Assembly: GCA_963804165.1 (NCBI GenBank) | Contig: CAWDPO010000001.1 | Location: forward strand, 125,381 to 189,380 | Source: an uncultured delta proteobacterium | GTDB lineage: Bacteria > Desulfobacterota > Binatia > UBA9968 | Direction of reading: 5' to 3' | Length of the DNA stretch: 64,000 nucleotides | Part shown: piece after piece, positions 1-50,907 of the stretch | Numbering within the stretch: position 1 is the first letter of the stretch | Layout of the letters: every line of letters begins with the position of its first letter | Notes under the pieces: model-generated | The model's database searches: none | What the model saw: only the letters and a program-made list of their open reading frames with translations | What the model was told of the DNA's origin: nothing | Program-made: the position numbers and the translations under genes

Positions 1-698
1 AATTTGAACTCGGATCGCCTGGTTTTCTGCTCCCAAGATAACCACCGCTCACTGGCGGTGAGCAAAGATCGTCAGTGCCGGCTGTGCCGTCGGGCTCAAC
101 AGTGAGCGTCGCGTTGGGTACCAACTCGAAGTCGCCATTGACGGTGCCTTCTGGGTTCAGCGAGGTCAGGAGCTGCGTCCAGGCAGCGGCGCAATCCACG
201 TTGCCCACGTTTCTCAGCACCCGGGCGCGGCGCATTGTGCGGATGCGCGCGGAAGTGTCGGCGCCTCCCAAAGCCGCTTCGAACAACTCTTTGTCTTCAA
301 CCGCCGACACCGGCTGCTGCCACACATCCAGCCAGACAAAGTCGAATTGCTGGGTCGTGGGCGCGGTTAGCGTCTCGCCCGGACGTGAACCCTGTTGTAA
401 CCAATCCTTCTGGAGGTTAAAGGGTTCGTCGCTCTCCAGTTCGAGACGAAGACCGCCGACGTAGAAGGTCCCGGCGCTCAATACCAGCTGACCAGCGACT
501 GATTTTGAGACGGAATCCGTCGTCTGGGCTTCCGGCCGGGCCAATCACATCCACGCGCACACGACGCGCGTCTTCGGCATCGAGCCGCTCGGCCTCGTTG
601 AAGTCGTCATCGGTCAGCACCCGGCCTTGTTGCATGTGCACACGGTCGTAGTGTTTTCGGTCATCGGTTGCGTCTCGTGAGATGTCGATATTAGGCAT
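1..698 (-). CDS. DUF6519-family eCIS-associated protein, 5' part (frameshifted near 450, runs off window)
   Basis: N-terminus MPNIDISRDATDDRKHYDRVHMQQGRVLTDDDFNE matches the xDxSR...HY...QQGRVxxDxDxNE start of DUF6519 proteins. Located at the distal end of the eCIS baseplate genes. Confidence 0.75.
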
Positions 699-709
699 AA
701 GTCCTCGAT

Positions 710-5581: not shown

Positions 5582-8199
5582 CTAGTCTGACTGCTCCCCG
5601 TTCAGGCAACTCTCGATTGTTTTCGACGCGAATGATTTCGTCGTGCGCGACGTGTAGACCAATTCGTCGAAGAGTCGCTTGGGAAACCAGCCACGACGAC
5701 GGATGTAAATCTCTTCAACTGCGCGAACGCCTGGAACAGCTTGAATCGCAGCTTCCAGGCGTGCTCGTTCCAACGGAGTCGCCGAACGTCCAGTTGTCTG
5801 GAGAAAAGAAACCAGGACGTGGTCTAACACCACGTTGACCGAACAACGCTTCAAGCACAGCTTCCTTCACATCGCCAATGTACGAAGTCGGAGCAACGCA
5901 GATATGAATCTCCAGATCCAGATTCGCGAACTTGGGATTCAGTCCATAAGTCTCGCGTCCCGCAAGTCTGTAGCGATTGAGTTGACGTTCGAGGTCGATG
6001 CGTTGTTCTTCTGTTAACGTGAAGCTGCCTTTTGGATCTGGAGTCGCGAAGAGCGTGAGCCAACTTCCAGTCCAACGGAACTGCGCGCCAGCACGTTGTA
6101 CCCATCTGAGTTTCTCGACGGCAGCTGCGTAGTCTTCGGCGCGCACCGCGCGAAACGTCTCAGCGCGAAACGCGTCTGGTGCGACATGTCGAACGTCAGC
6201 AAAGGATTCGGGATCTACCGCATTCGCAAGACCAAACTGGAGATCATCAGCCGCAAATTCATTGTCAGTAATGCCGAGTGGATTTGTGACCGCGATAACG
6301 AAGGTGAGCGGCGCCGCGGGATCGAATTCAGTGAGCGAGTTTGCGCCGACGTTGTCACCTCGACCTCTGCCAAGTCGATAAACAGTGCGAAACTGCATCC
6401 CTCGTGTTGGTTGTTCTCCAAACAGATCGTTACCAAACTGAACACTCGCACCACGGCCGTTGGCATAATCGAAATGCACAAACTCCTGGACCGTATCGGT
6501 TTCATCGACACGGCGATAAGAAGAAACACGTCGCCACGAACCATCGTCGATCGTGAAGTGTTTGTCGGTAGGCAGAGAGGAACTAACACCCAACATCGCT
6601 CGTTTCCACTCCCACTCGCTGTCGGTCACCCAGTTCCCGAGCACACGTGTTCCATCCATAACCCGCACTTCAGGAGACGCATGTTCAAGCGTAGGACCGT
6701 GCGACACCACATCACGTTCTTCCGATCCGGGAAGCGTGAAAAGTAGAGCGGAACGTTCAACTGCGAACGCAGAAAAGTTCTCGTTGTACAAAGTGTTCGT
6801 GGTTGGCAAGTGTGCCGGCTGCAAAGGCGGCAGCAATGCGGCCTGCGGATTTGGTTCGATCTCGAAAAAGGCTTCGAGCGTTTCTCCCGCCGTTGCCGGA
6901 ACGATGTTGCCGCGAACGACTAGTGTTGGCAGCTCCATTTCGAACGGCAGCGCGTATGCAGGATCCCATTCCAGTCGTGTGAGGTTCGTGCCGGTGAGTG
7001 GATCCACCAACGTCGCGCCGGCATCGTCGACTTTGATCAAACGAACCAACCAGGTTCGTACCGGCACACTTGCATCGACTGGATTGGTTTTTAGTATTAC
7101 CCATTTCCCACGAACTTGCGGATTGGTGAAATCATCGAGCGGAAGATCGTTTTGGTGATGACCTGTGACATGTAAAAAAGTAGAGCCGACTAACAGGCAG
7201 GTATCGTTTTCATCCCACTGATACGCCGTAAGTTCGTTTGCGGCATTGCGTAGCTCAAAATCCGACGTTGGATAGAGGTTGCTCTGCGAAGGCAACACGC
7301 CGAGCGGCGGCGTTAGTCCCTTGTGACCTTGAACAATTCCATGTCCTACTTCATACACTGATGGACTTCGGTGACGTCGATCTGCAAGCGTCTCTCCCGG
7401 TACAGCAGCTGGCGGCGGTACCCATACTGGCGTGCCTGCAGAGACAATGTGCACAGCCGCCGAAGCATCAACCGTGAAATCAAGCCACGTCGCAGCACCC
7501 TTGCCGTCGTGGACGTGGTAATCAAGCAATCGCGCCTGACGACGAATCGATCGGCGCTGTGTTGCGGATTCAAAATAGCGCTTCGCGCGAAATGCGATCC
7601 TGGTAATAGGCAAACTCGTCGCCGACAGCGCTCATTAACTCGGTGAGCATCATGCCGACATCAGCTTCAAGCCGATCTTTCCATTGCGGATGCCAGTCCG
7701 AAGCGAAATCCAGCAGCGCCTGCCGAATACTCCAGAAGTCGCGGGCCAGATAGTTCACCGGGTAGTCGATCAACGTATCTTCAGGACACTCGTGAGGCCG
7801 CGCTTCACAATCAAGCTCGCTCGGACAATTCGCCTTGAAACTGAACCCGACTCTACTGAAATACGGATCGACCAATGGACTGGTGAGCTGAAATTCATAA
7901 CGTGAGAAGTCGCCGGGCTGTGAGGTAATCACGCGTAAAACTCGCCTGCCAAAACGTGTGACCCACGTCGGAGGAAAATTCGGATTGAGCGGCACAACCG
8001 GCAATGACTCCCCGCCACTTGGACTGATAATCTTGATCTGAGAAGGCTGGACCACACCAAGGATCTGTTCAGCATTCAACGTCGCGTTCGGATGAAATAA
8101 CACAAACAACGTCGTCTGGTTTTCGCGGACAAAGATAAAGTCGATGCCCACGATGTCGTCGCGCCCGCGAAGATTCTCGATGCGATCGATTGCAGCCAT
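5582..8199 (-). CDS. eCIS baseplate J-like protein 1 (Afp11-like; frameshifts near 7590 and 5760)
   Basis: VNYLARDFWSIRQALLD...EADVGMMLTELMSAVGDEFAYYQDRI, ATQRRSIRRQARLLDY, VQFGNDLFG and RAVRAEDY motifs. Confidence 0.85.
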
Positions 8200-8201: not shown

Positions 8202-8579
8202 TTAACGAGTCACTTCCAAATTCAGATAACGGCGTTCGCCACGTGCTTTGAGCGTGTAGGCAATCTTGATTTCCAGTCGTTCATCGATCGCCAGAGCCTT
8301 TACATCGTTAACGTCAATTGCTGAGCCCAGCCAATTGGTGAGTGCTTGATAAATCGTTACCTGAGCCAACGACGCCGATACTTCACTGTTAGGGGCAAAC
8401 ACCAGTCGCTTTATCCCGCAGCCGAAATCCGGTCGATTGACTCGCTCGCCGGGCGCTGTGAAAAGAACCTGGAACATCATCTGCTCGATGTGCTCAGCGT
8501 AGTTCTCTTCTTCGGCTAAACGTCCGCGGCCGAGATCAACCGCGAAAGGATGTCGTATGCTGGTGAATGGTTCGGCCAT
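8202..8579 (-). CDS. gp25/GPW-like baseplate protein (Afp9-like)
   Basis: HIEQMMFQVLFTAPGERVNRPDFGCGIKRLVFAPN is the GPW_gp25 signature. Confidence 0.92.
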   Translation of the reverse strand: MAEPFTSIRHPFAVDLGRGRLAEEENYAEHIEQMMFQVLFTAPGERVNRPDFGCGIKRLVFAPNSEVSASLAQVTIYQALTNWLGSAIDVNDVKALAIDERLEIKIAYTLKARGERRYLNLEVTR

Positions 8580-8581
8580 CG

Positions 8582-8926
8582 CTATAGGCTCTTCACTTTC
8601 GGTTGCGTGTTTACCTTCATCACGAGTCCCTGGGGTAACTGTTGCGCGTTCTGGCAAAGACCGATGCTGCTCATGCTCAGAGTTGGCGTGCTATTAACTT
8701 TCGCGCGCATATCAGTCAGGATCCAACGAACGGTCAAACATGGGCTGGGAATCGTGGTGACGCCCGCAGGAATCTGAAAAGGGCATCCGGAGATCAAATA
8801 CTGATCATTCGCCAATGCTCCGAATGCGCCACCAACCTTCACCCGACTGTTCGTGGTAATGATCTGGACCGATCCTCCGTGCGGACACATCAGAGTTGAA
8901 CTCACGTTGAGAGTGTTTCCAGCCAC
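8582..8926 (-). CDS. PAAR-like (DUF4280-type) spike tip protein
   Basis: MCPHGG...GCPF...PSPC...GLC Cys/His pattern. Sits between the gp5-like spike and gp25. Confidence 0.8.
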   Translation of the reverse strand: MAGNTLNVSSTLMCPHGGSVQIITTNSRVKVGGAFGALANDQYLISGCPFQIPAGVTTIPSPCLTVRWILTDMRAKVNSTPTLSMSSIGLCQNAQQLPQGLVMKVNTQPKVKSL

Positions 8927-8929: not shown

Positions 8930-9487
8930 TTATGTAACCTCCCATGCGCCGTTGTTAACCTTCACAGTCGCCGCAGTGACTTCGACTTTTCCAGCTGACA
9001 ATTCACTGACGACACCTTTCGAGCTGATAGTATGTTTAGCGTTGCCCTTTTGACTCTTGATGTCTTTCGCGAGCGTCACTGTCGATTTGCTGGTTGTCGC
9101 GAGTTTCATTTCGTCGTTCTGATCGTCGATTCGCAGCGTCAACTTTTCCGTTTTCCAAATCTTGATCGGAGCGCCGCCCGGGTCTGGTAATTCGTTATCA
9201 GCCCAGAAACATCCACTCCAGATTGGATAACTGGGATCGCCAGCTTCGAATTCGACCCAAACACCCGTTCCGTTTTCCGGGAGACTGTAGAAGCCGACTT
9301 TCTTGCCTGCGTAAGGAACACAAGGCATGGCCCACGACTCGACGGTGCCGAGAACCGCGGGCACGCTGACTTTCAAACGCCCGCGATTAGTCGGATCGGC
9401 GTTGTCAGTTACGGTGCCGCGATACTTTCCGAAAAAGTGACCGCGGATCCACATGTAACATTGTTGAGTTAGGTCATCGCCATACAT
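8930..9487 (-). CDS. Phage baseplate assembly protein V / gp5 OB-fold spike (VgrG C-part)
   Basis: FFGKYRGTVTDNADPTNRGRLKVSVP...WAMPCVPYAG...GVWVEFEAGDPSYPIWSGCFW, followed by a short beta-repeat tail. Confidence 0.92.
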   Translation of the reverse strand: MYGDDLTQQCYMWIRGHFFGKYRGTVTDNADPTNRGRLKVSVPAVLGTVESWAMPCVPYAGKKVGFYSLPENGTGVWVEFEAGDPSYPIWSGCFWADNELPDPGGAPIKIWKTEKLTLRIDDQNDEMKLATTSKSTVTLAKDIKSQKGNAKHTISSKGVVSELSAGKVEVTAATVKVNNGAWEVT

Positions 9488-9491: not shown

Positions 9492-10556
9492 TTACTCCGC
9501 CCATCCGTTGCGGATTAGATCGAATTCCATGAAGTGTTCTGCTGAGTCGATCGAATGTCGCACTGCTGAACAAAACCAGGTGCCACTGTGGCGAGTACCG
9601 ACGCCACGAAGATTCACAAGAGTGTGTGATCGCAAAACTTTCTTAAGGGCACTGAAAGTCGTCGTACCGGTCGCGCGCAAAAAGAAACCTGCATCGATGA
9701 GTGTTCCCTCGTTGCGCGCTTGCAGATCTCCGTTGTCGTCAACCGGCGCGTAAACATGGGCAACGCGAGAGCCGGCGGCGATCGTGGAAAGATCAGTGCC
9801 ACCGAGAGCTGTCAACGGCGACCGTTGAACTGATCCGCTAAGGTTCGACTTCGTGTTTAAGTCGACCTCCGTTGAATTCGTCGACGTCGCCCTCTCCACG
9901 TCAAAAGTGATATCGAGGTCAGTAACGTTGAACTTCGGATCGGTGAGATTGATGATCAAATCGCATTCTGGCTCGCCATCGAACTTGGGACGTTTAAAGT
10001 GCGCGGTCTCAATCCCAAACTCGTCGCAGGTGACCCAGAAATGAAATCCGTTGCGGCGCGCGAGACGCCGTATGAAACTCAAGTCTGTCTCGCGTTGAAC
10101 CAATGTGTGTTTCATCTCCATGTGTCCCGCCTGCGTTGTTTCAACATCGGGAAGAAGGCCCGCTTCCGAGAGAATCGAGGAGACGGCAGCGCTATCCGTT
10201 AGATTGCTCCACGCAACTGCCTTGTCTTCACGGTCGAGCTTGATTAGCGAATCCGCGCCCTGCACCGACAGAGTGGAACCGGAACCGCCCTGTTTGAATT
10301 GAATCTGTTGACCGTAAACAGGGCCTTTCACAAGACAGGCTGTGGTCGCGTCCGTTGGCACAAGCACCGAGATCTCAGAACCTGGACCAACACTCGCGTC
10401 CTTCAGCAACGGAAAGTCGCCGTCAGCTATGTCGAAGCTGTATTCAAGGCGATACTGCGTTGGTTCACCGACGCATTCAGTGACCTCAACGAACGCAGCA
10501 CTCGCCGCTGTTTCGTTCGGCGCTCCGTTCACTCTGATCGCTACTCCGAGTCCCAT
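9492..10556 (-). CDS. Phage late control D / gp27-like hub (VgrG N-part, Afp8-like)
   Basis: LVQRETDLSFIRRLARRNGF and VNLRGVGTRHSGTWFCSAVRHSI motifs. Confidence 0.88.
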   Translation of the reverse strand: MGLGVAIRVNGAPNETAASAAFVEVTECVGEPTQYRLEYSFDIADGDFPLLKDASVGPGSEISVLVPTDATTACLVKGPVYGQQIQFKQGGSGSTLSVQGADSLIKLDREDKAVAWSNLTDSAAVSSILSEAGLLPDVETTQAGHMEMKHTLVQRETDLSFIRRLARRNGFHFWVTCDEFGIETAHFKRPKFDGEPECDLIINLTDPKFNVTDLDITFDVERATSTNSTEVDLNTKSNLSGSVQRSPLTALGGTDLSTIAAGSRVAHVYAPVDDNGDLQARNEGTLIDAGFFLRATGTTTFSALKKVLRSHTLVNLRGVGTRHSGTWFCSAVRHSIDSAEHFMEFDLIRNGWAE

Positions 10557-29693: not shown

Positions 29694-29709
29694 AGCAACC
29701 TACGTGCCA
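29694..29709 (-). promoter_or_regulatory. sigma54 (-24/-12) promoter for the 28108-29490 regulator
   Basis: Minus strand TGGCACGTAGGTTGCT is a perfect TGGCACG-N4-TTGCT consensus. Confidence 0.82.
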
Positions 29710-31888: not shown

Positions 31889-32013
31889 GGAAAGCCGGGC
31901 GCCGTTCACCCGCCCACGGCTGTGTTGCGCGTCTTCATTGCTTAGGCAACCGACAAGACGAATTCGGCTCTCTCGCGATCGCAGCATGCCAAGAGTGCCG
32001 CTCTCCCCTTTGG

Positions 32014-32244: not shown

Positions 32245-32302
32245 GTTAACCTCCCTGGTGTGAAGAAAATTTTCATCACGCTAACCTTAACAATTTTCGA
32301 AA

Positions 32303-37100: not shown

Positions 37101-38887
37101 CGAAAGAACGATCGATCATAACGCCGACGAGTTTTCCGGGGTCGGCGCCGAGTTCGATGAGTTCGCTTGCGAGCCGGTTGGCTCGATTGTTAAGGTCTTG
37201 ATAGTTCCAGGCGCTGTTTTCAAACTCCAACGCAACTGCTTCCGGCGCCCGCTCGACCTGCGCCTCAAATAATTCGTGGATGCACGCGCTCGCGTGGGTA
37301 CTCCGCCGCCGTATTATTCCATTCGACGAGCAGTTGTCGGCGTTCCGTCGCGCTAATCATCGGCAGCGCCGCGATGGAGCGGTCGGCATCGGTGACGAAT
37401 GCCCTCGAGTAAAGTTTGAAAATGACCGGTCATCCTTTCGATGGTCGCTTGATCAAAAAGCTCCGTCGCGTACTCGATGAAGCCTCGCAGCGTGCCCTCG
37501 CGCTCGCGCAAGTACAGCGACAGATCGAACTGCGCCGTTTGGTTGTCGATTTCGATGGGCTGCAAACCGATGCCAGGCGGAGCGGCACGCCGACGTGGTG
37601 TGTTTTGCAACACCAACATTGTCTGGAAAATAGGGTTACGGTTCAGGTCGCGCCGGGGGTTCAACGCCTCCACGACTTTTTCGAACGGCACCGCCTGATG
37701 CGCGTAGGCGTCGAGACAAACCTCGCGCGCGCGCTGGAGTAGCTCCCGAAAGCTCGGCTGACCGGAAAGATCCACGCGCAAGGCTAGAGTATTGACGAAA
37801 AAGCCGATAACCCCCTCGATCTCGCTCTGTTCGCGATTGGCAACCGGCGCGCCGACAATAATATCTTCTTGTCCGGTATAGCGATAAAGCAAAAGTTGAA
37901 AGGCCGCGAATAGCGTCATGAACAACGTGACGCCTTCGCGCTGGCTCAGATCGTTGAGTGCTGCCGTCAATGTAGGAGGCAGCTCCAATGGCTGCCTCCT
38001 GCCCTGAAAACTCTGCGTCGCCGGCCGAGGATGATCCGTCGATAGGTCGAGATACGGAGCGTTGGCAAGGTGCTGCTTCCAGTACGTCAAATGCGCCTCA
38101 AGCAAATCACCTTGAAGTTCTCGCCGTTGCCAGACAGCGTAGTCTCGGTACCGCACCGTTAGCTCCTGCAGCATTGGAGCAGCTAGCGTTGACGAAATCG
38201 TTATAGAGCGACCACAGCTCATGTGTGAAAATTCCCATCGACCACGCGTCTGAGATCATGTGATGCATGCAGAAAACCAGCACATGCACATCGTTGCGGT
38301 CTTTGAGTAGCTGGATTCTGAGCAACCGGTCGCGCGATAAATCGAACGGTTGCCGCGCCTCCTCAAGAAGTAAGTGCGTCGGTTTGCTTTTTTCGTTCCT
38401 CTTCCAACAGCGCGCTGAGATCGGTGGGATTCAGGAGCAGAGATCTCTGCCACGGTTGCGCATTGAAGCGCGCGGCCCTCGACAGCGACAAACTTTGTCC
38501 GCAGCGACTCGTGGCGGCGAATAAGCTCATTCTAAGGACAATTCGAGCGCGCGAATATCCAGCGGACCGATGATGCGTACAGCGCGAGCGAGATTGTAAA
38601 CCGAACGTCCCGGCTCCAATTGCTCCAAGAGCCACAAGCGCTCTTGAGCGAACGACAGCGGCGACGGCTGATCGTCGGCGCTGTGCAGAATGCGTGTCCC
38701 AGAGGTTTCTAACGGCGCGATTTGCGCGCTCCAAAAACCGGATGATCTCCTTCTTGTGTTTGGCAATCTGCTCACTCAGGGCGGGAGTCAGAGTACCGCG
38801 CGGCGCGTTCACGCGCAGGTGCTCCCCGGCCACGGAGAGGCGGATATCGAGGCTACGAAGCTGTTCGAAGAGTGCGGCGGTGTTTAT
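34102..38887 (-). CDS. NRPS 3: TubC-like docking domain-C-A-T-C(terminal) (frameshifts between 37.3 and 38.8 kb)
   Basis: LRVNAPRGTLT docking motif, C HHMISDAWS, A YTSGSTGTPKG / KTSLSFVDSVWEIF, T LGGHSL, terminal C HHIITDQWS, no TE. The start codon reads ATA at the position of an expected ATGA overlap. Confidence 0.88.
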
Positions 38888-41800
38888 AACTCGATCTCCT
38901 CTCGTTTGTCCGCGTGCGGATCGATTCCGGCATCGGCAGAAATTTCTGCAGATTCGAGGCGCTTGGCCAGCGTCGCCACCGTCGGCGCTTGCAGGAAGGT
39001 TCGCAGATCCAAACTCATCTGCATAGTTTCGCGAATCCTTGCAGCAGCCTGGGCGGCGAGTAAGGAATGGCCGCCGAGTTCGAAAAAATTGTCCAGCCTG
39101 CCGACTCGTTCGACACCGAGCACATCCGCAAAAATTTTGCCGAGTCGTTGTTCCATCGCGGTGCGCGGCGCTTCGAAAGGAATCCGCCTTTCGCGGTCGC
39201 GCTCCTCAAAGGCCGGCAAACTGAAATAGTCGATCTTGCCGTTGGGGCTGATCGGCAATCGGTCCATGAAATGAAAATAGAATGGGATCATATAATGTGG
39301 CAGCCTTGCGCTTAAAAACGCGCGCAAATCGTCTGCGCCGAGATCGCAATCTTTTTCGCGCTCGACGTAGGCTACCAGTCGCGCTTCTCTCATTCCCATG
39401 GCGTCGCCGCTGTCGAATTCCCGGGCCGCAACTGCAACGACGTGCACACCCGCGCATTGGGCGAGCGCTGATTCCACCTCCGGCAGTTCGACGCGGAAGC
39501 CGCGGATGCTCACGCGACGGTCCCGCCGTCCCGCCCATTCGACGTTTCCATCCGGCAAATATCTGCCGAGCTCCCCGGTTCGGTAAAGCCGATCGCGCTC
39601 ATCGCCTGTAAAAGGACTCATCATGAAATTCGACTCGGTTTGCGCGTCGTCGCCGACGTAGCCCGCGGCCAGATGCGGGCTGCGCACATAAATCTCGCCC
39701 CGCTCGCCCACACCCGCTTGTTGGCGATCGGCATTTAATATGAGGAGCTGTACATCCTTGACGCCGTTACCCGTCGGAACCGTTTCCTTTGCGGCGCCGC
39801 CACGCATGAATAAATGGTTGGGAACGACATTGTAGCCGACCGCGCGCTGGGTTTCGGTGGCGCCGTAAAAACTCACGATCGACGCGTTCGGCGCGGCCTC
39901 GTGCATGGCGCAAACATCTTGCCGGGTCAACACATCGCCGCCGAAAAATACCCGGCGCACTGACGGCAGTTGGATGCTTCTTGCGGTTCGAAGCAGCCGC
40001 CCCAGCGCGGGCGTGAGATGAAGGATCGAAATCTCTCGGCGCTGCAGCCAATGAACCAGTTGCTCCGCGTCTTTCAATTGCTCGTCGGTCGGAACGTATA
40101 CTGTCGCGCCGGACGCGAGTGCGGTAAAAAGCTCGCGCTGCAGATGATTGTAACCGAGGCCGGATAACAAACTGTAACGGTCTGAGTTTTTTAACTCGAA
40201 GGTTTTCTCCTGCCACGGCAGAAAATGCGTGATCGGACCATGCCGGCACAGAACGCCTTTCGGCTCACCGGTCGAGCCCGAGGTAAAGGCGACGTAAGCG
40301 GAATCATCTGCTTTAAGCGCGATATCCGGCACACGTCCCAGGTCCCGCTTCAGGAGCCAAGTGATTTCCTGGCGTGCGCGCGGCAAGTCGATCCGGCAGG
40401 AAATCTCCGTTGTCCCAATGAAGCGCGCGAGTTCCTGCGGCGGCGCGCCGGCCCCCGCCATGTGTATCCAGCCTTTGGGTTGTACGATACGAAGATAATC
40501 GAGCAAACGTGCCGCCGGATACGCCGGGTCGAGAATGACGAATACCGCGCCCGCTTTGAGGACGCCGAGGATCGCCAACGCGAGCGTCGCGTCGCGATGC
40601 GCGTAGATCGCGACGACATCCCTTGGATGAATATGCTGCTGAATCAGCAAACCGGCCAACCGACTGGTCACCGCATCGAGCTCTTGGTATGTCCAACTGG
40701 CATCTTCATCGGCAACGGCGGCTTTCTTAGTAGATTTCTCGGCCTGGCGTAGAACGAGCGAATGTATCGTCCCGAACCAAGTTTCGTCGAGCCGCTCCCC
40801 GGGATCGGGCAAAATCGTTTTTGCCAGCGCAGTCACCAGAGTGAATTGCTCTATCTTTTTATTTGGCTCACTGACAGCCTGCGATAGTAAATTGCTCCAT
40901 TGATCGATCAGCGCCGTCATTCTCGCCTCGGAAAAAAGATCGGCATTGTAAACCACTGTCAACTCGATCCGGCCATCGGTTTGCGGTGCTTGCAACACCA
41001 GATCGAATTTTGCGCCAGGTGCGGCTTGACTAATTCTCTCTGTTTCGCAACCAGTCAAGACGAGTTCGCGCTCGGCAACATCCGCCATGTTAAACAGCAC
41101 CTGGAAAATCGGATTGCGGCTCAAATCGCGCCCCGGATTGATCTCCTCGACGACTCGTTCGAACGGCAAGTCCTGATGCGTGTAGGCGTCCAGGCATGTT
41201 TCGCGAACGCGCGTGAGTAATTCGACAAACGTCGGACTGCCGGACAGATCCGTGCGCAAAGCCACCGCGTTGATGAAAAATCCGATGAGGCCGTCCAGCT
41301 CCGGCCGGTTTCGCCCTGCCACAGTCGAGCCGACAACAACGTCGTCTTGACCTGCCAAGCGCGATAGTAGAATTTTGAGCGCGGCCAACAGCGTCATGAA
41401 TAGCGTCGCGCTCTGCTGCCGGCTCAGCTGTTTCAGCGCGTCGGTAAGCTCTTTCGACAATCGCTCGGTTACCCTGGCGCCTCGATAAGTCGGCGCGCCT
41501 GGGCGTAAGTAATCCGTCGGTAGATTGAGAAAGCGCAATCCGCTTCCGAGCCGGTGTTTCCAGTAGATCAGTTGCGGCGCTGAGGCCTTGCTTCGAAGCC
41601 AATCCTCCTGCCACGCGGCGAAGTCGGCGTAATGCGTGGTGAGCGCCGGTAACGCCACGCGCTTCTCCGCCAGCCTGGCTTCATAAACTCGCGCCAGTTC
41701 CCGATAGAATATCGCCAACGATGAGCCGTCGCAGATGAGGTGATGAAAATTCAATATCAGGAAGAAATCCTCGGCGCCGAGCCGAAGCAGCTTGGCGCGC

Positions 41801-44800
41801 ATCAATGGCGCGCGGCTAAAATCGAACGGCTGGCGAGCGTCAGCGTTAAAAATCCGTTCCGCTTCTTTTTCCGCTTGCTCCAGCCGAAGCCGGCGTAGGT
41901 CGATCACGTCCAAGTCCAAGTGTGCCAACGCTTGAACTTGTTGAAATGGCTCGCCATCGATTTCGGCAATCACCGTGCGCAGCGTCTCGTGTCTGCGCAC
42001 GATCTCATCGAGAGACGCTTCGAGCGCCGCAATATTCAGCGGCCCGCGCACGCGATGAGAAACCGGCATATTGTACGCGGTCAGGTCGGCATCCAGTTTG
42101 TGCAGAAACCACACCCGCCGCTGCGCAAAGGAAAGCGGAATGCCCCATCGCGCCGCACGGCAACAATCGGCGGCGTATTTACGCCGCGCGTGCTGCGGCA
42201 CAGCCGGTCGATCTCTGCCCCGAGCAACGCCACGGTCGGCAATTCAAAGAGCCTGCGCAAAGGCAGATCCACGTTGAAATTCGTGCGCAATCGCCCGGCC
42301 ACGCGGGCGGCAAGCAACGAGTGGCCGCCCAACTCGAAGAAGTTGTCGTGTACACCGACCCGGTCGAGTTTAAGAATCTCGCGCCAAGTCTGCGCGATCA
42401 ATTCTTCGCTCTCCGTGCGTGACGCCACGTAATCGTGAATCGACTGAGACAAGCCGCCGTCGGGGTACGGCAGCGCGCGGCGATCGACTTTGCCGTTGGG
42501 GGTCAATGGCAACCCATCCAGCGGAACGAACACCGCGGGAATCATGTATTCAGGCAACGTCTGGCACAAGGCGTTGCGCAACTCGCTCCCCGACGCGAAC
42601 ATCGAGCCGTTGAAAACCAAGTACGCAACCAGTTGTCGGTCGGATTTCGGATTAGAGGATAGATTCGGGTCGTCAGCCGTCATGTCCCGCGCGACGACGA
42701 CGCTTTCGCGAATTGCCGGATGCCGGTTGAGCGCCGCTTCGACCTCGCCAAGCTCGATGCGGTAACCGCGGATCTTAATCTGATTGTCGACCCGCCCGAG
42801 GTATTCGATGTTGCCGTCGACGTCGTATCGCGCCAAATCCCCGGTCCGATACATGCGTGCTTTCGCACTGCGCGCGAACGGATCGCGCAGAAATTTCTCG
42901 GCGGTTAATTGCGGTCGGTTCAAGTAACCGCGCGCGACGCCGGCGCCGCCGATAAAGAGCTCACCCGCCACGCCGATGGGCACGGGCCGAAGCGCGCCGT
43001 CGAGCAGATAAGTCTTCGTGTTGGCGATCGGTCGCCCGATCGTCGCCTTGCCGTCTTTCTTGCGCAAAGTGAAAGTCGAGTAAGTCGTAGTTTCGGACGG
43101 CCCGTAAAGATCATAAACTTGTTTGACCGTGTCGGTTTCATAGATCCGCTCGACAAGCTCCGTCCTCAACGGCTCCCCGGCAAGATTCACGGTTCGGACC
43201 GTGGGCGGCAGTGCGCCGAGATCGAGCAGTTCGCCGATTGCCGACGGCACGGTATTGACCAGCGTAACTTTGCCCGTCCCCGCCAGACTGTGAAGCGCCA
43301 AAGCGTTGTCGACCATGATCGCTTTGCCGCCCCAACAAAGCGGCGCGAACAATTCAAAGACCGAAAGATCGAAACAGATCGACGTCGATGCCAAAACGCC
43401 GGCGAGTTGCTCGGCAGAAAAAACTCGCTTAGCCCAACACAAAAAAGCAACCGCGTTTCTGTGCTCGATCGCGACCCCTTTCGGCTCGCCGGTCGATCCC
43501 GATGTGTAGATCACGTAGGCTAAATTGTTGGAGCCAGCCTTGTTCGAAAGTTGCCGGGAATCTTCCCTCGCGATCTTCGTCCATTCGGCGTCGATGCAAA
43601 CTACATTGGGTCTTCGGCCCAATGACTGAACACTTACCGCCGGCAACCGACGAGTCGTTGACAACTTCTTGTGAGTTAACAGCACTTCAACGCCTGCGTC
43701 CTTGAGCATGAATGCGGTCCGGGCCGGCGGATATTTAGGATCCAGCGGCACGTAGGCACCACCAGCTTTCAAGATCCCGAGCAAGCCTACGACCATTTCC
43801 AGGGATCGCTCGACGCAAATACCAACCCGGCTTTCCGCCCCGACACCAAGCTTACGCAGGTAACGCGCCAGCTGGTTCGCCCGGCAATTTAGTTCGCGGT
43901 AAGTGAGAGTTTGACCGGCGCACTCGACGGCAGTCGCGCGCGGAGTTCGCGCAGCCTGAGCTTCGAATAGCTCGTGGATACAGCGGTCTTTGGGGTAAAT
44001 CGCCGTGGTCCGGTTCCATCGAACCAGTATCTGCTCACGCTCGCGCTTGGATAGCAGCGCCACGTCCCCGATAAGCTCTTCGGGATGAGCCGCGATGCGA
44101 CGCAGAAGCGTCAAAAGATGGCGTGCCATCCGCGCAATCGTCGGCCGATCAAAAAGGTCGGTGCTGTATTCGAAGAAGCCTCTTAATTCCGCGTCGCGCT
44201 CGGCCAACGACAGTGTGAGGTCAAATTTTGCCGTCGACCCCGCCAAGTCCAACGCTTCGACCTGAAGCCCTGGAAGCTTGAGCTCCGCGGTCGGATAATT
44301 CTGGTACGCCAACATCACATCAAACAATGGATTTCGACCGAGATCGCGCTCCAGACGCAACTCTTCGACTAATTGATCGAAGGGCAAATCCTGATGCGCC
44401 AGGGCGCCGTTGCAATGCATGCGCACGCGACGCAGCAGCTCGCGAAACGTCGGGCTTCCGGACAGGTCAGTGCGCAACACCAGCGTGTTGACGAAGGGAC
44501 CCATCAAGTTTTCGGTACCGGTCTGACTGCGATTCGCAGCCGGGAATCCGACGCGGATATCGTCCTGACTCGAGTAGCGCCACAACAAAACGTTAAAGGC
44601 GGCCATCAACGTCATGAAGAGCGTCGTACCCTCTTCAGCGCTCAGTTTCTTTAATCCTCGAACCAGCGCTTTGGGAATCGCCAGAGGAAGCCGCGCGCCG
44701 CGGAACGATTGCACGTTTGGCCGGCGACGATCGGTCGGCAGCGCGATTCCCACGGCGGCACTGTTACACAGGCGTTCCTTCCAATAAGTAAGTTGACTTT

Positions 44801-45497
44801 GCAGTACGTTGCTCTGAAACAATTGTCTCTGCCGATAGGCGTAGGTGCCATAATGAATCGGCAGCTCGGGAAGGTCGAATTTTCGACTCGTTACAAAGGC
44901 CCGATAAAAGGTTTCTAGCTCGCGCAGAAACAGGCTCATCGACCAACCGTCGCAAACTATCTGATGCAGGACTACCAGCAACACGTGATCGGTGTCGGCG
45001 ACCTGGATCAGTTTCGCTCTGATCAACGGCCCGCGCGCGAGATCGAACGGCGCCGCCGCGTCAGCGTTAAGCGCACGTGACGTCTCGGCCGAGTGCTGCT
45101 GTCTCGACAAACCGCGTAGATCGATCACGGGCAAAGGTATCAACAATTCCGGCGTGACGGTCGCAACCGGTTTTTCGTTTACACTGGGAAACGCCGTGCG
45201 CAGGATTTCATGGCGCCGGACAATCGCATTAATTCCGTTGCCGAGTGCGTGGCGATCTATGCGGCCCTTCAGTCTCCAAGCGCGAGAGATGTGATAGACG
45301 GCGCTCGCGGGATAGAGCTGATCGAGAAACCAGAACCGCTCCTGGGAAAATGACAGCGCGCCTTCGCCCGACATAATTTCCGCAAGCGGCCGGCGGGCGG
45401 GCAGGTCGATCCCATCTTTCTTAAGCAGCCGTGTCAGCAGTTTGCGCCGCGCCATATCCTGTACGCCAAGCGCGCTTCCCGGCTGCCTTTCAGCCAT
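38884..45497 (-). CDS. NRPS 2: C-A(Ala)-T-C-A(Lys2-like)-T (frameshift near 42150)
   Basis: C HQIVCDG, A with code DLFNNALTYK, T LGGHSL, C HHLICDG, A FTSGSTGEPKG / YGATETQRAVGY, T LGGHSL. Confidence 0.9.
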
Positions 45498-47431
45498 CGC
45501 TCTTGGTTCCTTCCGGATTCCGCACGGCGCGCAACACTTCAGCATCCGACATCGCTTCGACTTGAAGGAACACCGCCGCGATCTTCCGCGCTTGTTCTGG
45601 CTGGCTCTCATGATCCATGATGAAACGAGCTAATTCCGCGACGGTCGGCGTCGCGAATAGATTCGTCAGTGGCACTCGGAGCGAAAACAAGCCAGCGATT
45701 TTTGTGACCAGCCGCACCGCGAGCAACGAATCCCCGCCCAGTTGCGTGAAATCGTCGACAATGCCCACGGTGTCAAGATTCAGGACATCGCGCCACATCA
45801 TCACCAGCGCTCTTTCGACGGCGTCGCGCGGCTCGACCAATGTCGTGTCGACACTGCGTTGATTTCTCTCGGGAGCCGGCAAAGCGCTTCGGTCGACTTT
45901 GCCGCCGGCATTCACCGGTAGACTTTGCTGCAGCATGAAGGAATCAGGAATCATGTACGCCGGCAACTTGGATTTCAGTTGCGTTCGTATCCGCTCAACG
46001 TCAAACGCGGTAGCTTTTTTAGGAACGACATAGGCAATCAGCCGGCTGCCCTTCGCTGCGTCCTGCCGGGCCACAACGACAGCCTGACGGATCGAAGGAA
46101 TCTCATTGAGCGCTGCTTCGACCGCGGCAACCTCCACTCGATATCCCTTCACCTTCGCTTGAAGATCTTTTCGCCCGACGTGAAACAAACAACCATCCGG
46201 CAACTGATAGCCGAGATCGCCCGTCAGATAAGTGCGCATCTCGCCTTCTCTAGAATCGGCAAGAAATTTCGCGCGCGTGAGCTCGGGTTGGCACCAGTAT
46301 CCCAAGGCCAAGTAAGGGCTGCGAACGGCGATCTCGCCCATCGTCCCCGCATTTGCCTCGTCCCCATCGTCGTCGAGGATAAGAACCTCATTGCCCTCCA
46401 AAGGATATCCTACGGGAACGTGAGTCACCGTGAATTTTCGTATCCTGGTTCAAGAAAAAATACGAAACCGCCTGCGTCTCGCTGATGCTGTAGCGCGAGA
46501 CAAACAGGCAGTCGTCGGAAAAATGTCTACGGAACAGATCCACGTCGGTTTTGTAAATCGGTTCGCCGCCGATGTGAATCAGCCGAACGGCGGGGAATTT
46601 CTCCGCTCCGCCGACGCCGTTGACCGACTGGCGAAACACGGTCGCCACGCATGTGAACACGCTGATTTCCTCATCGCGCAGCCAATCTCCCAATGTCGCC
46701 AAGCCACCGGCGCCGAGATCGAGAAGGATCAGCGCAGCGCCGTTGAGCAGTGCCAGAAACATATCCCGGGCCGCGCCGACGTTATTGGCGCGCAACAAAC
46801 TGATGCGGTCGGTTGACGCGATATGCAGCGCGTTGGTTTTCGTGCGGATGCCGAACAGCTCGCTGCGATGATTCCACATCACGCCCTTGGGCGCGCCCGT
46901 CGAACCGGAAGTAAAATTGATATAAGCCAACGCATCCGGCGACACCAACAATTCCAGGTTTTCACGGTAGGGATATCGATCGAGAGCGTCGATGTTCAAG
47001 ACCTGCTTAACGTCGCCGGCGATTTCCATGGCAGCATCGAAGTTATTTTCGTCAGACAGCACGAGACAGCCACCGAGTGTCGCCAAAATCTCCTGAAGTT
47101 TAATCTTGGGCAGCTGGGGGTTCAGCGGCACAAACGCCTTTCCGGCTTTCAACGCGCCAAGAATAGCGACGACCATGGGCGTGCCGGCGTTGCAGAGAAT
47201 CGCGATCCGGTGCGCCTCGGTTCCGCCGTGGCCCGAGATCGCGTGTGCGACGCCGTTAGCCAAAGCGTTGAGCTCGCTATAAGTAAGCGACTGCTTCCCG
47301 GCCTTTACTGCGAGGCGTTCAGGATACCGTCGTGCCTGAAGTTCGAAACGTTGCGCAATCGTTTGGTCAATATCCGCAAGGGGAAATTCGACGAAGGGAT
47401 TAGTCGGGAACAAGGCTCGGCTGGAGATCAT
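45490..47431 (-). CDS. NRPS 1: starter A-T didomain (frameshift near 46420)
   Basis: FTSGSTGAPKG, GEIAVRSPYLALGYW, TGDLG, GKVDR, T LGGDSL. The A4 region lacks the amino-binding Asp. Confidence 0.88.
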
Positions 47432-47485: not shown

Positions 47486-50400
47486 TCAATCGGACAAGGT
47501 CTTGAGGGCGGCCTCCGCGCGATCTTTCCACCTTGTCATCGCCATTTCGCTATATTGCTCACGCGCCGCGGCTATTTCGATACGCGCTTGATCGAGCGCG
47601 CCGCGGGCCGCGTGAGCCGAGCCGAGACCCATCTGACAATGTGCCATGAGCGGACGCATGCCCATTTCTTCGCTGAGCGCCAGGGCCTGACCAAAGCGTG
47701 CTTCGGCGCCCGACGGATCGCGCCGGCTTTCGTGCGATGAAATATCGCCGAGCAACTTGAGCGCCCAGGCTTGATGGCCCGCGTTCCTTGTACTGCAGTG
47801 CAAGATCAAGGGCGCGCTCGGCCATCTCGCTTGCCTCCTCGGTACGGCCGGAGAACAAATATCCCTCGCCGAGCGATGCCGTGCTCATCGCCAGAAAGGC
47901 AGCGCGGCCGCCGGGTGCGTACTGCCGGCGCCTTGCTCCAAATACGGAATGGCCTCCGAGACTCGCCCGGAGTGAGCATAGGCGCATCCGAGGCGTGATG
48001 CGACGAACGGCACATAGACCGGGATGTTGAGCTGAAGCGCAAAGTTCGAGTGCTCTTTCGAGCACGGGTATCGCCTTGTCCAAATCGCCTTTCAGCAAAT
48101 GCATCATTCCGACACTACACTTCATGTGGATCAGGCTCGTCGCATGCTCGACTTCTTCGCCGATGCGCACCCCTTCTTCGCCGAATCCGATCGCTTCGGC
48201 GAAACGGCCCATGGCGGCGAGACATTGAACGAGATGGCTGCGGCAGATCACTGATAACACCGCTGCAGTTCCAAAGCGTTCACGGCGATGTTCCGCGCCG
48301 AGGTTTTTCAGTCCCTGGGTCAACGATTCGATCGCCTGAGCATATTGGCCGGTCTTGTTATAAGCCGCGCCCAAGTAGTAGTAAGTCACAGTGCTCGAAG
48401 CGAGATCGCTCTGCACGACGCCGAGTCGGAGCGCGCGCTGGCCGATCTCGATGGCCCGCTCCGGGTCACCGGCCAGGCCGTAATAACTGTTCAGAAAATT
48501 CAGCACCCGGGCAAAGCGTGGTTCATCACCGAGTTGCTCCGCCAATGCTTCCGCGGCGTGCAGGTGTGCCGCGACACTCTTTAAGTCCCCGAGCAAGAAC
48601 AACACGTTTCGCGCGTCGAGGTGAAGGTCGATTTCTTCCGCGAGCCTTCGCCGGCGAGTCGGCCTGATGAGTCAACGCGACCAGCGCGTTCTGGTAATCA
48701 GCCAGGGCCTCCAGGAATGCCGAACGCGACATCGCTTTGGCGCCGGCTTGACGCAAATAACGAACCGCTGAACCCCACAGCTCGCCTTGAAAAGCATGAT
48801 GCGCGAGAGCTTCGAGATGATCGTATACATCGTCGCCGGCGATCGTCTCCAGCGCCTGAACGATGCTTCCGTGGAGCGCAGACCTGCGCTCATGCAGCAG
48901 CGCGCCATAGACGACTTCGTTGGTGAGCGCATGCTTGAAACTGTACTCCAAGTCGGGAAATAAATTGCTCTCAAAGAGAAATTCCGCCGCTTGCAGATTG
49001 GACAAATACCGTTGCAGATCCTCTTCCGGCAGCTCGGTCACGACTTGTAGCAAACGCAGCGGCACAACCACGCCGACCACCGCCGCGGTCTGGAGCAATT
49101 GTTTTTCCGCGGCGGGCAGGCGATCGACGCGATCGGCAAGCACTGTCCGCACCGTGCCCGGGACGCGAATGCTGTCGATCGCCGCTCCCAGGGAATACGC
49201 GCCTGGGGAACCGACCAACGCACCCGTCTCGACCAACGAGCGAACGATTTCTTCGATGAAAAACGGATTGCCCTCCGTGCGTTTAATTAGCAGTTCGCGG
49301 AGCGATGATAGCTCTGGGTGGTTGCCAACCAGCGACGCGAGCAATTCGTCGGCGCCGGCGGGCGAGAGAGGGTCCAGCCGCACACGAGTATAATATTCCT
49401 TGTTGGCCCAAGTATGCGTATAACCCGGTCGATAATTGACCAGGAGCAGGACCTGCGCCTGGTCAAGGCTTTCAACAAGGGCATCGAGAAATGATTGCGT
49501 CTCGCTGTCGATCCAATGCAGATCCTCGAAAACGACCAGCAGGGGTTTTTCCCGGCCCTCGCGCAGCAACAGGCGGACAAGCGCTTCAAAGGTCTGGGGC
49601 CGTTTTTCCTGCGGTTCCATGTCCTGGAAATTTACCATCGCCTCGAGAATCGCCGGCTGGTCATGCATAGAAGTTTCGGTCAGATCGTTTGCCGGCAACA
49701 ACGGCAGAGCGTCCAACAGCGCTAAAAGCGGCGGCACCGTGTCGCCCAGCGTTGGATCGAGCTCCAAGACTCGCGCCACGACTTTCGTCCTAACGCTGCG
49801 GACGTCTTCACCGGGGCCGACGGCAAAATAGCGCCGCAATAAGTCGACCACCGGAAAGTACGGCGACGCTTTGCCGTACGAAACCGAGAACGCTTGCATG
49901 ATCTGCCAGCCGGACGGCAGGTGATTTTCGATATACTCCCGAAAGAGCCGCGACTTTCCCATGCCGGCTTCGCCGACCAGCGCAAGGACTCGCCCGCTCC
50001 TGGAATCGGCTTCAGCCGTGCAGCGCCGGAACGCGTCGATTTCCCCCTGTCGGCCGACAAAGGTGGAGAGCCCACGCGATGCCTGAGCCTGCAAACGGTT
50101 CTTCGCCGTAGTCGCGCCGAGCAGCTCGAACGCCTGCACCGCATTGGAAAATCCTTTTAATGCTTGCGCGCCGAGCGAACGCACCTCGACGAATCCTTCG
50201 ACCTCACGCAGGGTCTCGGCGGTCAGCAAGATCGACCCCGCGCCGGCCAGCGATTCCATCCGCGCCGCCAAGTGGGTCGTCTGCCCCAGCGCGGCATAGT
50301 CGATATTGAGGTCATTGGTGATCGACCGGACGACCACTTCGCCGGAATTGATGCCGATGCCGATTTTCATCCGATCCGCCGCGTTTTCCGTGAAGCGGCG

Positions 50401-50907
50401 CATTTCTTCCTGCATCGCGAGAGCGGCGTAGCAGGCGCGCAGTGCGTGGTCCTCATGAGTCAGCGGCGCGCCGAAGAGAGCCATGACACCGTCGCCGAGA
50501 ACCTGATTGACCGTGCCTTCGTAGCGGTGCACGGCATCCATCATGATGTGCAGGATCGGATCGAAGTGCTTTCGCACCTCCTCGGGATCGAGCTTTTCAA
50601 TCACGCTGGTGGAGCCGCGGATGTCGGCAAACAAGACCGTAACTTGTTTTCGTTCCCCTTCAATGAACCTTCGCGACGCCAGGATTTTTTCCGCCAGATG
50701 TTTCGGGACAACGGATTTCCCCGACGATGCCGCGGCAGTCTTCTCGACCCCTGGAGCACCAACGCGCTGACCACACTTCTTGCAAAACTTTGCGCTCGGC
50801 CGGTTCGACTCGCCACAGTGATCGCAGATCACGTCGATCGCGGCGCCGCACTCGTCGCAAAAGCTCGCGTCGTTGGCGTTAACCGCCTGGCAGTGGGAAC
50901 AGTTCAT
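47486..50907 (-). CDS. Zinc ribbon-class III adenylate/guanylate cyclase-AAA ATPase-TPR protein (frameshifted)
   Basis: Double zinc ribbon CxxC, VLFADIRGST, LGDGVMALFG, GINSGEV, HLAARME, GEAGMGKS, FEDLHWID, TEGNPFFIEE, C-terminal TPR-like helices. Confidence 0.9.

Follow-up and report, generated by a model that had tools for sequence, protein, structure and literature searches.

Extracellular contractile injection systems (eCIS) of the Afp/PVC type are known from Serratia (Afp) and Photorhabdus (PVC), and what turns on eCIS particles is largely unknown. The main texts of two surveys (PMC6899500, PMC8213781) name regulators of the TetR (Afp6), GerE/LuxR, BTAD and RfaH types and do not contain the word "sigma"; their supplementary domain tables may list Sigma54_activat. 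The 64-kb stretch analysed here (hereafter the window) forms the end of contig C1 in a metagenome-assembled genome (MAG) of 7.5 Mb and 46 contigs. It carries an eCIS cassette whose regulatory head, with its defined promoters and enhancer sites, is predicted to be a sigma-54 switch, an assignment that is well supported and, as far as we found, concerns an undescribed arrangement. Our literature searches returned no description of eCIS control by sigma-54 or an enhancer-binding protein, nor of any linkage between a nonribosomal peptide synthetase (NRPS) and an eCIS; the matches concerned type VI secretion systems (T6SS) or were unrelated. For this stretch an original prediction had proposed one integrated system, in which an NRPS product or a cyclic nucleotide (cNMP) acts through two tiers of sigma-54 activators on the eCIS.

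Several better known systems resemble parts of this locus. VasH-type sigma-54 activators are encoded in T6SS clusters, and RpoN is paired with T6SS. Two-tier sigma-54 cascades lead from FleQ to FleR and from FlrA to FlrC in flagellar regulation, and cascades of enhancer-binding proteins operate in Myxococcus. In Pseudomonas syringae, HrpR and HrpS are reportedly input-less sigma-54 activators of an injection apparatus, with small-protein feedback through HrpV. Mycobacterial Rv0386-type cyclases join a class III cyclase, an ATPase, tetratricopeptide repeats (TPR) and a LuxR helix-turn-helix.

The eCIS operon and its regulatory head

The control region of the window contains the following features, among them two bacterial enhancer-binding proteins (bEBPs).

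28108-29490, minus strand: bEBP1, an NtrC-family sigma-54 activator (Sigma54_activat 6.1e-64, HTH_8 6.6e-5)
27903-27918, minus strand: predicted sigma-54 promoter of the eCIS operon, TGGCGCCTCGTTTGCT, one mismatch to TGGCAC-N5-TTGCW
27982-27999, 28051-28068 and 28073-28090: three TGCGG-N8-CCGCA palindromes, with 2, 1 and 2 mismatches here
27575-27889, minus strand: small104, first gene of the operon, 104 aa, conserved (90-120 aa among relatives)
29694-29709, minus strand: predicted sigma-54 promoter of bEBP1, TGGCACGTAGGTTGCT, an exact TGGCAC-N5-TTGCW and the only one in the window
29924-29940: perfect palindrome GTTCTAAAGTTTAGAAC, a candidate enhancer site about 215 nt upstream of the bEBP1 promoter
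30323-31888, plus strand: GAF-bEBP, a GAF-AAA+-HTH_8 regulator by Pfam (the open reading frame, ORF, opens at 30305 and the likely ATG is at 30323)
30287-30315, plus strand: candidate sigma-70 promoter of GAF-bEBP, TTGACA-N17-TAATTC, read from the sequence directly before the ATG

Counting the window, 20 loci carry bEBP1; small104 lies directly downstream in 19 of them and is followed by the sheath gene in 18. The exceptions to this order are genome G079, where an MFS transporter comes next, and locus L064. Small104 itself is found in 21 of the 22 loci of the set, again with G079 as the exception, and in L005 and L006 it accompanies an eCIS with no adjacent bEBP1. In other lineages the genes upstream of bEBP1 are mutually unrelated (lactonase/phosphoesterase, BNR, NicO, an ECF sigma factor with its anti-sigma factor, cytochromes c), so the module starts at bEBP1.

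These loci come from three collections, one built on the sheath (12 loci, 8 of them close), one on GAF-bEBP (20 loci out of 81 genomes of the family) and one on the N-terminal domain of bEBP1 (matches in 14 of the 81 genomes, giving nine new loci); the near-identical L058 and L059 were taken together as a single piece of evidence. Among public genomes, the closest eCIS loci come from Pyrinomonadaceae or Acidobacteriota, and we accordingly regard the source organism as a soil acidobacterium belonging to the Pyrinomonadaceae. As for the MAG itself (completeness 80.9%, contamination 5.0%), it has one rpoN gene and 34 Sigma54_activat matches, 28 of which reach at least 216 bits, and it contains the exact TGGCAC-N5-TTGCW element 17 times where base composition predicts 7.5.

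In 19 of 21 loci small104 is preceded, at a distance of 40-65 nt, by a GG-N10-GC element with no more than two mismatches to the sigma-54 consensus, whereas the background rate of the same loci would give about 0.05 such elements per 200-nt window by chance. Alignment of the loci on this promoter brought out the 18-bp palindrome TGCGG-N8-CCGCA, which typically occurs as two copies 22-23 nt apart and a third 70-90 nt closer to the promoter. Between bEBP1 and small104 at least one copy (at most one mismatch) is present in 18 of 21 loci and the full triplet in nine. The copies in the window are weaker than those in other loci, and the genome background is 415 sites in 7.5 Mb. With gene order, promoter and enhancer triplet conserved in about 20 loci, predicted control of the eCIS by sigma-54 and bEBP1 is well supported.

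The original prediction had anticipated much of this control region. The eCIS operon that it placed behind a sigma-54 promoter is confirmed by the Pfam and PHROGs gene set, with TGGCGCCTCGTTTGCT at the operon head; the activator said to have a perfect sigma-54 promoter is bEBP1, with the sole exact match of the window about 200 nt upstream; the divergent activator with a GAF domain is indeed a GAF/Sigma54_activat/HTH_8 gene; and the lower tier that it drew from bEBP1 through a sigma-54 promoter to the eCIS agrees with the conservation just described.

The activator of this lower tier has a canonical AAA+ core, with GAFTDA as its L1 loop, and a Fis-type helix-turn-helix. A profile search of the PDB matched its first ~140 residues to the receiver domains of LuxO and of two Aquifex proteins, NtrC1 and NtrC4, and the Pfam scan gave no Response_reg match. 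Over nine aligned sequences the phospho-acceptor Asp position is occupied by Arg or Leu, and the conserved Lys position by Cys in eight and by Tyr in the ninth (L007). Judged by these replacements the N-terminus is a pseudo-receiver, no longer phosphorylatable. Together with the sigma-54 promoter in front of the gene, a dead receiver implies that the amount of bEBP1, and not its phosphorylation, would set the switch.

The first gene of the operon, small104, has no Pfam or PHROG family. Its AlphaFold2 model (pLDDT 80.7) forms a winged helix with a C-terminal helix, and Foldseek matches to LmrR and PadR are weak (TM 0.6-0.7, E about 2e-3), so that a PadR/LmrR-type winged-helix protein is weakly indicated.

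Behind small104 the operon encodes the injector:

26701-27489, minus strand: coiled-coil ORF of 262 aa (orf262), between small104 and the sheath gene
1-26637, minus strand: eCIS structural and cargo genes (Pfam, PHROGs), continuing beyond the window start, with the members that follow
24307-26637, minus strand: sheath (Phage_sheath_1 and Phage_sheath_1C)
23774-24280, minus strand: gp19 tube (Phage_T4_gp19, E = 9.4e-40)
22965-23768, minus strand: T4_baseplate protein (Pfam)
20773-22089, minus strand: Pvc16_N cap protein (Pfam, 8.6e-17)
18569-20776, minus strand: AAA+ ATPase, Afp15-type (Pfam AAA, 6e-25)
13594-18333, minus strand: eCIS_core (DUF4157) protein (Pfam)
11628-13571, minus strand: eCIS_core (DUF4157) protein with an Ntox14 toxin domain (Pfam)
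9492-10556, minus strand: gpD (Phage_GPD at 24.5 bits, under its cut-off of 30.1 bits)
8930-9487, minus strand: VgrG OB domain (Pfam Phage_base_V)
8202-8657, minus strand: gp25 (Pfam GPW_gp25)
5715-7613, minus strand: baseplate wedge (PHROGs phrog_219)

The two DUF4157 proteins match eCIS_core with E-values of 3e-26 and 3.4e-15. About 3.6 kb past window position 1 the operon ends distally with DUF6519, beta-helix and CarboxypepD_reg proteins. With sheath and tube, baseplate and spike, and cap, ATPase and DUF4157 proteins all encoded, the cassette is of the Afp/PVC type by its gene content. Capsid, portal, terminase and TssJLM families had no match among the window ORFs scanned, several of these ORFs being without a family and no search of the genome having been aimed at them; orf287 and several baseplate ORFs match no Pfam or PHROG family. 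The sheath gene is single in the genome.

Head and injector have different closest relatives. bEBP1 and small104 are nearest to congeners (56-75% and 47-58% identity, respectively), whereas for sheath, tube, cap and ATPase the nearest relatives (74-97% identity) belong to another lineage, in which bEBP1 is only ~50% identical. This pattern suggests that a resident head received a different eCIS cassette. The coiled-coil ORF at 26701-27489 is located at the junction of head and structural genes; it has no homologue in the fetched loci or in the rest of the genome and no Pfam or PHROG family, and is thus unique to this genome.

The GAF regulator and the promoter of bEBP1

Upstream of bEBP1 and divergent from it, GAF-bEBP matches Sigma54_activat at 1.1e-63, and a TGTCAA block is kept across the orthologous intergenic regions upstream of the gene. 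Among solved structures its GAF domain is closest to the cAMP-binding GAF domains of Anabaena CyaB2 (1ykd, 1.9e-33) and to the cGMP/cAMP-binding ones of mammalian PDE2A (1mc0, 2e-30), PDE10A and PDE5; the GAF domains of other regulators score far lower against it. An NK..F..D.E motif, with the Glu shifted by one residue, is present in all 120 relatives surveyed, and we take a motif of this NKFDE type to be the mark of cNMP-binding GAF domains. The domain is therefore probably of the cAMP/cGMP-binding type and the protein a candidate cyclic-nucleotide sensor.

A class III cyclase is encoded within ~21 kb of the GAF-bEBP orthologue in 13 of 17 loci tested, a count that leaves out three short contigs. 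The cyclases differ in build: a STAND-TPR protein heading the NRPS cassette in three genera, a CHASE2 protein in G032 (a 7.1-Mb genome with only four cyclases), a short stand-alone form in G001, a 761-aa frame with no assigned architecture in G007 and a 306-aa frame 17 kb off in G076. Genome G015 has a REC-cyclase and a cNMP_binding transporter (L041:3502-9136) beside a 53%-identical orthologue, which may be a second indication that these regulators are associated with cyclic-nucleotide signalling.

A predicted sigma-54 promoter commonly lies divergent from orthologues of GAF-bEBP: 14 of 20 loci have such an element, with one mismatch at most, 170-740 nt upstream of the gene, where ~0.03 per locus would be expected, and it is followed by genes of varying kinds. 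In its L1 loop the regulator has GVATGV in place of GAFTGA, with the Thr kept and the Phe replaced by Ala. All 18 readable orthologues have GVATGV, and a wider survey of the 120 closest database clusters, from which eight mis-hits of the search pattern were dropped, gave GVATGV in 99, GVASGV in 11, GFATGV in one and GIATGV in one of the 112 evaluable relatives. Among the other bEBPs of this genome, 27 of 28 have G(A/S)(F/Y)T.A. According to PMC3467059, the Phe and Thr of the GAFTGA loop of PspF touch sigma-54 region I, and according to PMC7175178 most GAFTGA mutants fail in activation. By its sequence, then, the GAF-bEBP family is not a canonical sigma-54 activator, yet it stands beside sigma-54 promoters far above chance.

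At least 36 of 80 genomes of the family have a match to the GAF region at 50% identity or more among the matches listed, a tally that includes the unpublished genomes G005 and G011 and has 921 weaker rows outside it. We read GAF-bEBP as a backbone gene. Members of the GAF-AAA+-HTH_8 clade are automatically annotated as "Nif-specific regulatory protein" or "sigma-54-dependent Fis family regulator".

No enhancer motif for the GAF regulator emerged from alignment of 29710-30300 with the promoters of G076, G051 and contig C41. In G076 (L030:11090-11110) and G051 (L033) the sigma-54 promoter facing the GAF gene is preceded by TGCGG-N8-CCCGA, found when these two were aligned with the unlinked C41 promoter; it resembles the bEBP1-type palindrome with one imperfect half.

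The other side of this intergenic region is the promoter of bEBP1. All six loci in which GAF-bEBP is divergent have a sigma-54 element with at most one mismatch before bEBP1, as do four of the 12 that have no GAF gene adjacent (G074, G028, G034 and G019), while six other bEBP1 genes have no sigma-54 promoter in front. The palindrome TGCGG-N8-CCGCA is absent upstream of the bEBP1 promoter in all ten loci compared, which speaks against simple upstream autoregulation. The candidate site GTTCTAAAGTTTAGAAC is the only match to its sequence in the window with fewer than three mismatches; it is perfect also in G068, degenerate in G061 and G055, and not seen in G066 or G079. A search for repeats common to both promoter regions returned none that convinced. 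In this genus we regard GAF-bEBP as narrowly the likeliest activator of this promoter and bEBP1 itself as practically level with it, each a possible and neither a probable one, with some other activator not far behind.

Within the ~190-nt leader of bEBP1, the block TAAAACGYTTGTT at 29553-29573 is kept in all six loci with a divergent GAF gene (the window, L027, L028, L032, L045 and L056) and missing from three compared leaders without one (L058, L060 and L061).

A third enhancer-binding protein, of 731 aa and with two GAF domains, is encoded ~8 kb left of the window (C1:115560-117755; L065:8561-10756). It lies ~4 kb past the distal end of the eCIS operon, beside short-chain dehydrogenase genes, and brings to three the regulators of this kind in ~42 kb.

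A mosaic locus and possible links between its blocks

On its far side the GAF gene is met by a biosynthetic cassette in which adenylation (A), thiolation (T) and condensation (C) domains are recognised:

47559-50907, minus strand: zinc-ribbon/class III cyclase/AAA_16 (STAND) NTPase/TPR gene (Pfam), the first of the cassette
38884-47431, minus strand: NRPS1, A-T-C-A-T-C-A-T, in four frames (46388-47431, 45490-46428, 42081-45611 and 38884-42201)
34102-38833, minus strand: NRPS2, C-A-T-C with a terminal C domain, in at least three frames (38363-38833, 37353-38222 and 34102-37230)
32303-34327, minus strand: alpha/beta-hydrolase-domain gene, the last of the cassette and convergent on GAF-bEBP (Abhydrolase_1, E = 3.6e-11)

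In sum the NRPS has four A-T modules, three inter-module C domains and one terminal C domain, with no Thioesterase (PF00975) match in 34102-47431 and a separate hydrolase gene next to it. The true start of the hydrolase is probably near 34030, as its 597-aa orthologue in G075 (71% identical) aligns from 34027; a PDB search by sequence gave it no relative save one weak partial match (SDR, E = 0.0022). The cyclase gene is split into ORFs 48526-50907, which holds an N-terminal double zinc ribbon and the cyclase domain, and 47559-48605. Aligned to solved cyclases, the domain has both metal-binding Asp residues and the Arg, and it has Gln at the substrate Lys position and His at the Asn position, a combination kept in all eight orthologues; the roles of the metal-binding, substrate-specifying (Lys/Asp or Glu/Cys) and transition-state Asn/Arg positions are those we presume for this class.

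Compared with G075, where the cyclase is one 1159-aa ORF ending 7 nt before NRPS1, NRPS1 one of 2832 aa and NRPS2 one of 1579 aa, the NRPS and cyclase genes of the window contain at least six frame breaks, near 48646, 46424, 45480, 42150, 37410 and 37288 (tblastn places the frame changes of NRPS1 near 46424, 45480 and 42150), with a further cluster at 38181-38719. Contigs from soil, which share 6-7% of sampled words with the window and align at 88% likeness, are mostly from relatives and cover it patchily; they are informative only for two frame-break sites and for the join at 31755-32329. Short-read contigs of 88-92% identical relatives, among them one at 92%, lack the extra base at 46424, and over 38181-38719 such a contig departs from the window sequence through six 1-nt deletions and a single 1-nt insertion. 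Because the contigs of relatives are free of these indels, most breaks read as assembly errors. The breaks do not lie in long homopolymers, and their context alone cannot separate error from mutation; the cassettes of G068 and G066 are similarly fragmented. Elsewhere in the assembly there are single-base runs (A x183, G x189, A x52 and G x21) that resemble artefacts of reads or assembly, in keeping with a draft that contains indel errors.

From 1.5 kb upstream of the cyclase to the NRPS start, a scan in seven genomes found no sigma-54 promoter for cyclase or NRPS; the only hits had two mismatches and none fell at a shared non-coding position. In G076 the whole 18.6-kb cassette is replaced by a cupin gene and the same flanks (window 51004-54496; 78-94% and 51% identical) reach the GAF gene, so that the cassette appears as an indel between conserved flanks. 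An ORF with an IS200-like Y1 transposase domain and a DnaA C-terminal helix-turn-helix lies at 54628-55575, ~3.7 kb past the cyclase gene, and the genes between the two (Amidohydro_2, DHDPS-like) are also fragmented.

The full order of cassette, GAF gene, bEBP1, small104 and eCIS recurs in two congeners, G068 and G066. G079 keeps cassette, GAF regulator, sigma-54 promoter and bEBP1 and has the MFS transporter in place of the eCIS, no small104 or eCIS gene being found within 27 kb (L032:5577-8548, L053). The 93-aa ORF that follows bEBP1 in that genome is unrelated to small104. G061 and G055 share the divergent regulator pair, and in G075 a remnant of bEBP1 survives (80 aa). At least three types of eCIS are found behind the pair, with a long sheath in the window, a short sheath in G066, G061 and G055, and a Pvc16-first arrangement in G068, so the pair has outlasted its cargo. 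Each block also occurs alone: GAF gene and cassette lack an eCIS in seven loci (G075, G074, G024, G038, G060, G054 and G063), the GAF gene has neither companion in G076, G051 and others, and bEBP1 with its eCIS stands apart from GAF gene and NRPS in 15 loci. Behind the GAF-facing sigma-54 promoter of G076 and G051 there is a haem-oxygenase-like gene, whose homologue here (75% identical) is on contig C41 with a sigma-54 promoter of its own. Locus comparison thus shows the units to be separable, with conserved predicted promoters and enhancer sites and recognisable domain types; the region reads as a mosaic of three separable blocks at a variable locus. Adjacency of the blocks is conserved within one genus only, and an upper tier above bEBP1 stays inference.

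Overall, the explanation we favour, with modest confidence, is one of separable units: an eCIS with its own sigma-54 switch, a backbone GAF regulator and an inserted cyclase-NRPS cassette. Several accounts of how these units relate have to be weighed.

In the strongest of the rival accounts, the blocks would simply adjoin. bEBP1 would drive both sigma-54 promoters, looping from sites 1.6 kb downstream, and the PadR-like protein would damp the resulting self-reinforcing and perhaps bistable switch; the GAF regulator would serve other promoters, and neither it nor the NRPS cassette would be related to the eCIS. We consider this joint account possible and somewhat short of probable. Four of the 12 bEBP1 loci that lack an adjacent GAF gene do have the sigma-54 promoter, but self-activation is not a fixed feature of the module, given the six bEBP1 genes without such a promoter, and in none of ten loci does TGCGG-N8-CCGCA lie upstream of it. 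Likewise, the eCIS module travels as a unit among variable neighbours, the different closest relatives of head and structural genes fit cassette exchange, and contig C41 holds another sigma-54 target that matches the partner of the GAF gene in G076; the GAF-bEBP1 pair, however, persists in six congeneric genomes.

An integrated relay, which refines the original prediction, is slightly more doubtful. Here the NRPS operon would co-express the cyclase, whose cNMP would act on the GAF regulator, which would then fire the bEBP1 promoter and thereby the eCIS, with peptide and injector deployed together. A near-perfect sigma-54 promoter faces bEBP1 in six of six genomes with the divergent pair, but the promoter is also of sigma-54 type in four genomes without an adjacent GAF gene, two of which (G034 and G019, only 66-71% complete) yielded no GAF orthologue at all. 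The pair is kept despite differing eCIS types, even in G079 which has none, and GAF orthologues elsewhere face a sigma-54 promoter in ten further loci; against this, the GAF-linked promoters have no common enhancer motif, and in G076 and G051 the gene faced is the haem-oxygenase-like one, served here by its own sigma-54 promoter elsewhere. bEBP1 is without a working signal input of its own and the GAF domain is of the cNMP-binding type, but the GVATGV loop is non-canonical. As for the cassette, in G075 a gap of 7 nt separates the cyclase ORF from NRPS1, and the NRPS genes lie between cyclase and GAF gene in three genera, whereas both flanks of the GAF gene vary, as at an insertion hotspot.

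It is very improbable that the NRPS peptide itself binds the GAF domain and thereby sets off the eCIS: adjacency is all that speaks for it (in 10 of 20 loci the cassette and the GAF gene converge), but the domain groups with cAMP/cGMP-binding GAF domains, orthologues of 50-73% identity lie near cyclases with no NRPS in G032, G001, G015, G007 and G076, and in G076 and G051 the GAF gene has no NRPS beside it. A chimeric join, a concern raised with the original prediction and one that 46 contigs and many single-base frame breaks might invite, can be dismissed, as the independent assemblies G068 and G066 repeat the full order and G079, G061 and G055 parts of it, near-identical short contigs from a soil run span the join of GAF and hydrolase genes at 31755-32329, and GC content is even over the block joins.

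The integrated system of the original prediction consequently divides. Its cNMP half has become more plausible through the kinship of the GAF domain and the cyclases of at least four architectures near orthologues, and the link between the regulators rests on adjacency in one genus. For the NRPS product as the cue we found no support: no sigma-54 promoter precedes the NRPS, the cassette is an indel, and the blocks occur apart. Synteny across relatives, which had been proposed as the check, gives both answers, with the full layout in G068 and G066 and every block also found by itself. As to the co-expression check, the run search returned no RNA data set with this sequence. Of the smaller statements, the absence of unrelated genes between the features is correct, and the description of a thioesterase-less NRPS operon preceded by a class III cyclase holds as to the missing Thioesterase match and the cyclase in first place, with a terminal C domain and a following hydrolase gene to be added.

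The pairing of proteins with sites, the ligand, and any flow of signal from the cassette or the GAF unit into the eCIS are what we infer in the following scheme. The TGCGG-N8-CCGCA sites that separate the bEBP1 gene from the operon are the most likely targets of bEBP1, which from there would open the sigma-54 promoter at 27903-27918, giving expression of the PadR-like small gene and then of the whole eCIS. The gene for bEBP1 would be read from the second sigma-54 promoter. The GAF regulator would be made from a sigma-70-type promoter, its GAF domain most likely binding a cyclic nucleotide from a nearby class III cyclase, and it would act on the sigma-54 promoter that faces away from it; the first gene of the inserted biosynthetic cassette would supply the cyclase. 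The link from cyclase to GAF regulator is plausible. The complete second-messenger relay, from an NRPS-co-translated cyclase through cNMP, a GVATGV-type GAF-AAA+ regulator and an input-less bEBP1 to the eCIS, we consider unlikely.

Five points weigh against this scheme. The loop of GAF-bEBP is without the Phe that contacts sigma-54 in PspF, so its action at a sigma-54 promoter is not assured; nor, with Gln and His at two catalytic or specificity positions, are the product and activity of the cyclase. The frame breaks may be signs of a decaying cassette in this strain. It could be the PadR-like protein, and not bEBP1, that occupies the enhancer palindromes. Finally, the six congeners that bear the regulator pair are related, so that one joining event may account for all of them.

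Whichever account holds, the head is a compact and conserved control unit, made up of two predicted sigma-54 promoters, a sensor-less activator, an 18-bp palindrome in three copies and a small winged-helix protein, and it occurs in a common soil bacterial family. Cyclic nucleotide sensed by the GAF regulator is a concrete candidate for the upstream signal. A large regulator clade with an altered sigma-54 contact loop beside sigma-54 promoters bears, in addition, on how strict the GAFTGA rule is; were the relay true, a natural enhancer-binding protein would work on sigma-54 without the conserved phenylalanine.

Comparison with known systems

The injector, as predicted from its genes, resembles the Afp/PVC eCIS of Serratia and Photorhabdus (PMC6899500, PMC8213781) in its sheath, gp19 tube, gp25/gp6/VgrG baseplate, Pvc16 cap, AAA+ ATPase and DUF4157 proteins, one of which carries a toxin domain in the window. 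It differs from the surveyed eCIS in its head, where two predicted sigma-54 promoters accompany a PadR-like gene and an NtrC-type activator whose receiver is dead.

For the GAF domain, those of CyaB2, PDE2A, PDE5 and PDE10 (1ykd, 1mc0, 2zmf) are the best matches (1.9e-33 to 1e-15). They control a cyclase or a phosphodiesterase, whereas the domain here is fused to an AAA+ activator core and its ligand is predicted. Similarly, the cyclase shares with the Rv0386 type the fusion of a class III cyclase to a STAND-type NTPase and TPR, along with Gln at the substrate Lys position; in contrast to that type it has no C-terminal DNA-binding domain, begins with a double zinc ribbon, has His at the catalytic Asn position and heads an NRPS operon.

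As in the flagellar and Myxococcus cascades, the activator gene appears to be read from a sigma-54 promoter itself. The second tier of those cascades is phosphorylatable and has its own kinase, whereas bEBP1 is without the acceptor Asp and the first tier here is putative. HrpR/HrpS and HrpV offer a further likeness in an input-less activator, an injection apparatus and a small protein encoded in the regulon, but HrpR and HrpS are paralogues that depend on each other and act above an ECF sigma factor, and small104 has a PadR-like DNA-binding fold.

We know of no PadR-like first gene and no TGCGG-N8-CCGCA triplet in VasH/T6SS clusters. These share with the present locus the principle of a contractile injector cluster that encodes its own sigma-54 enhancer-binding protein; the T6SS is membrane-anchored and not an eCIS, and the N-terminal domain of VasH is different from that of bEBP1.

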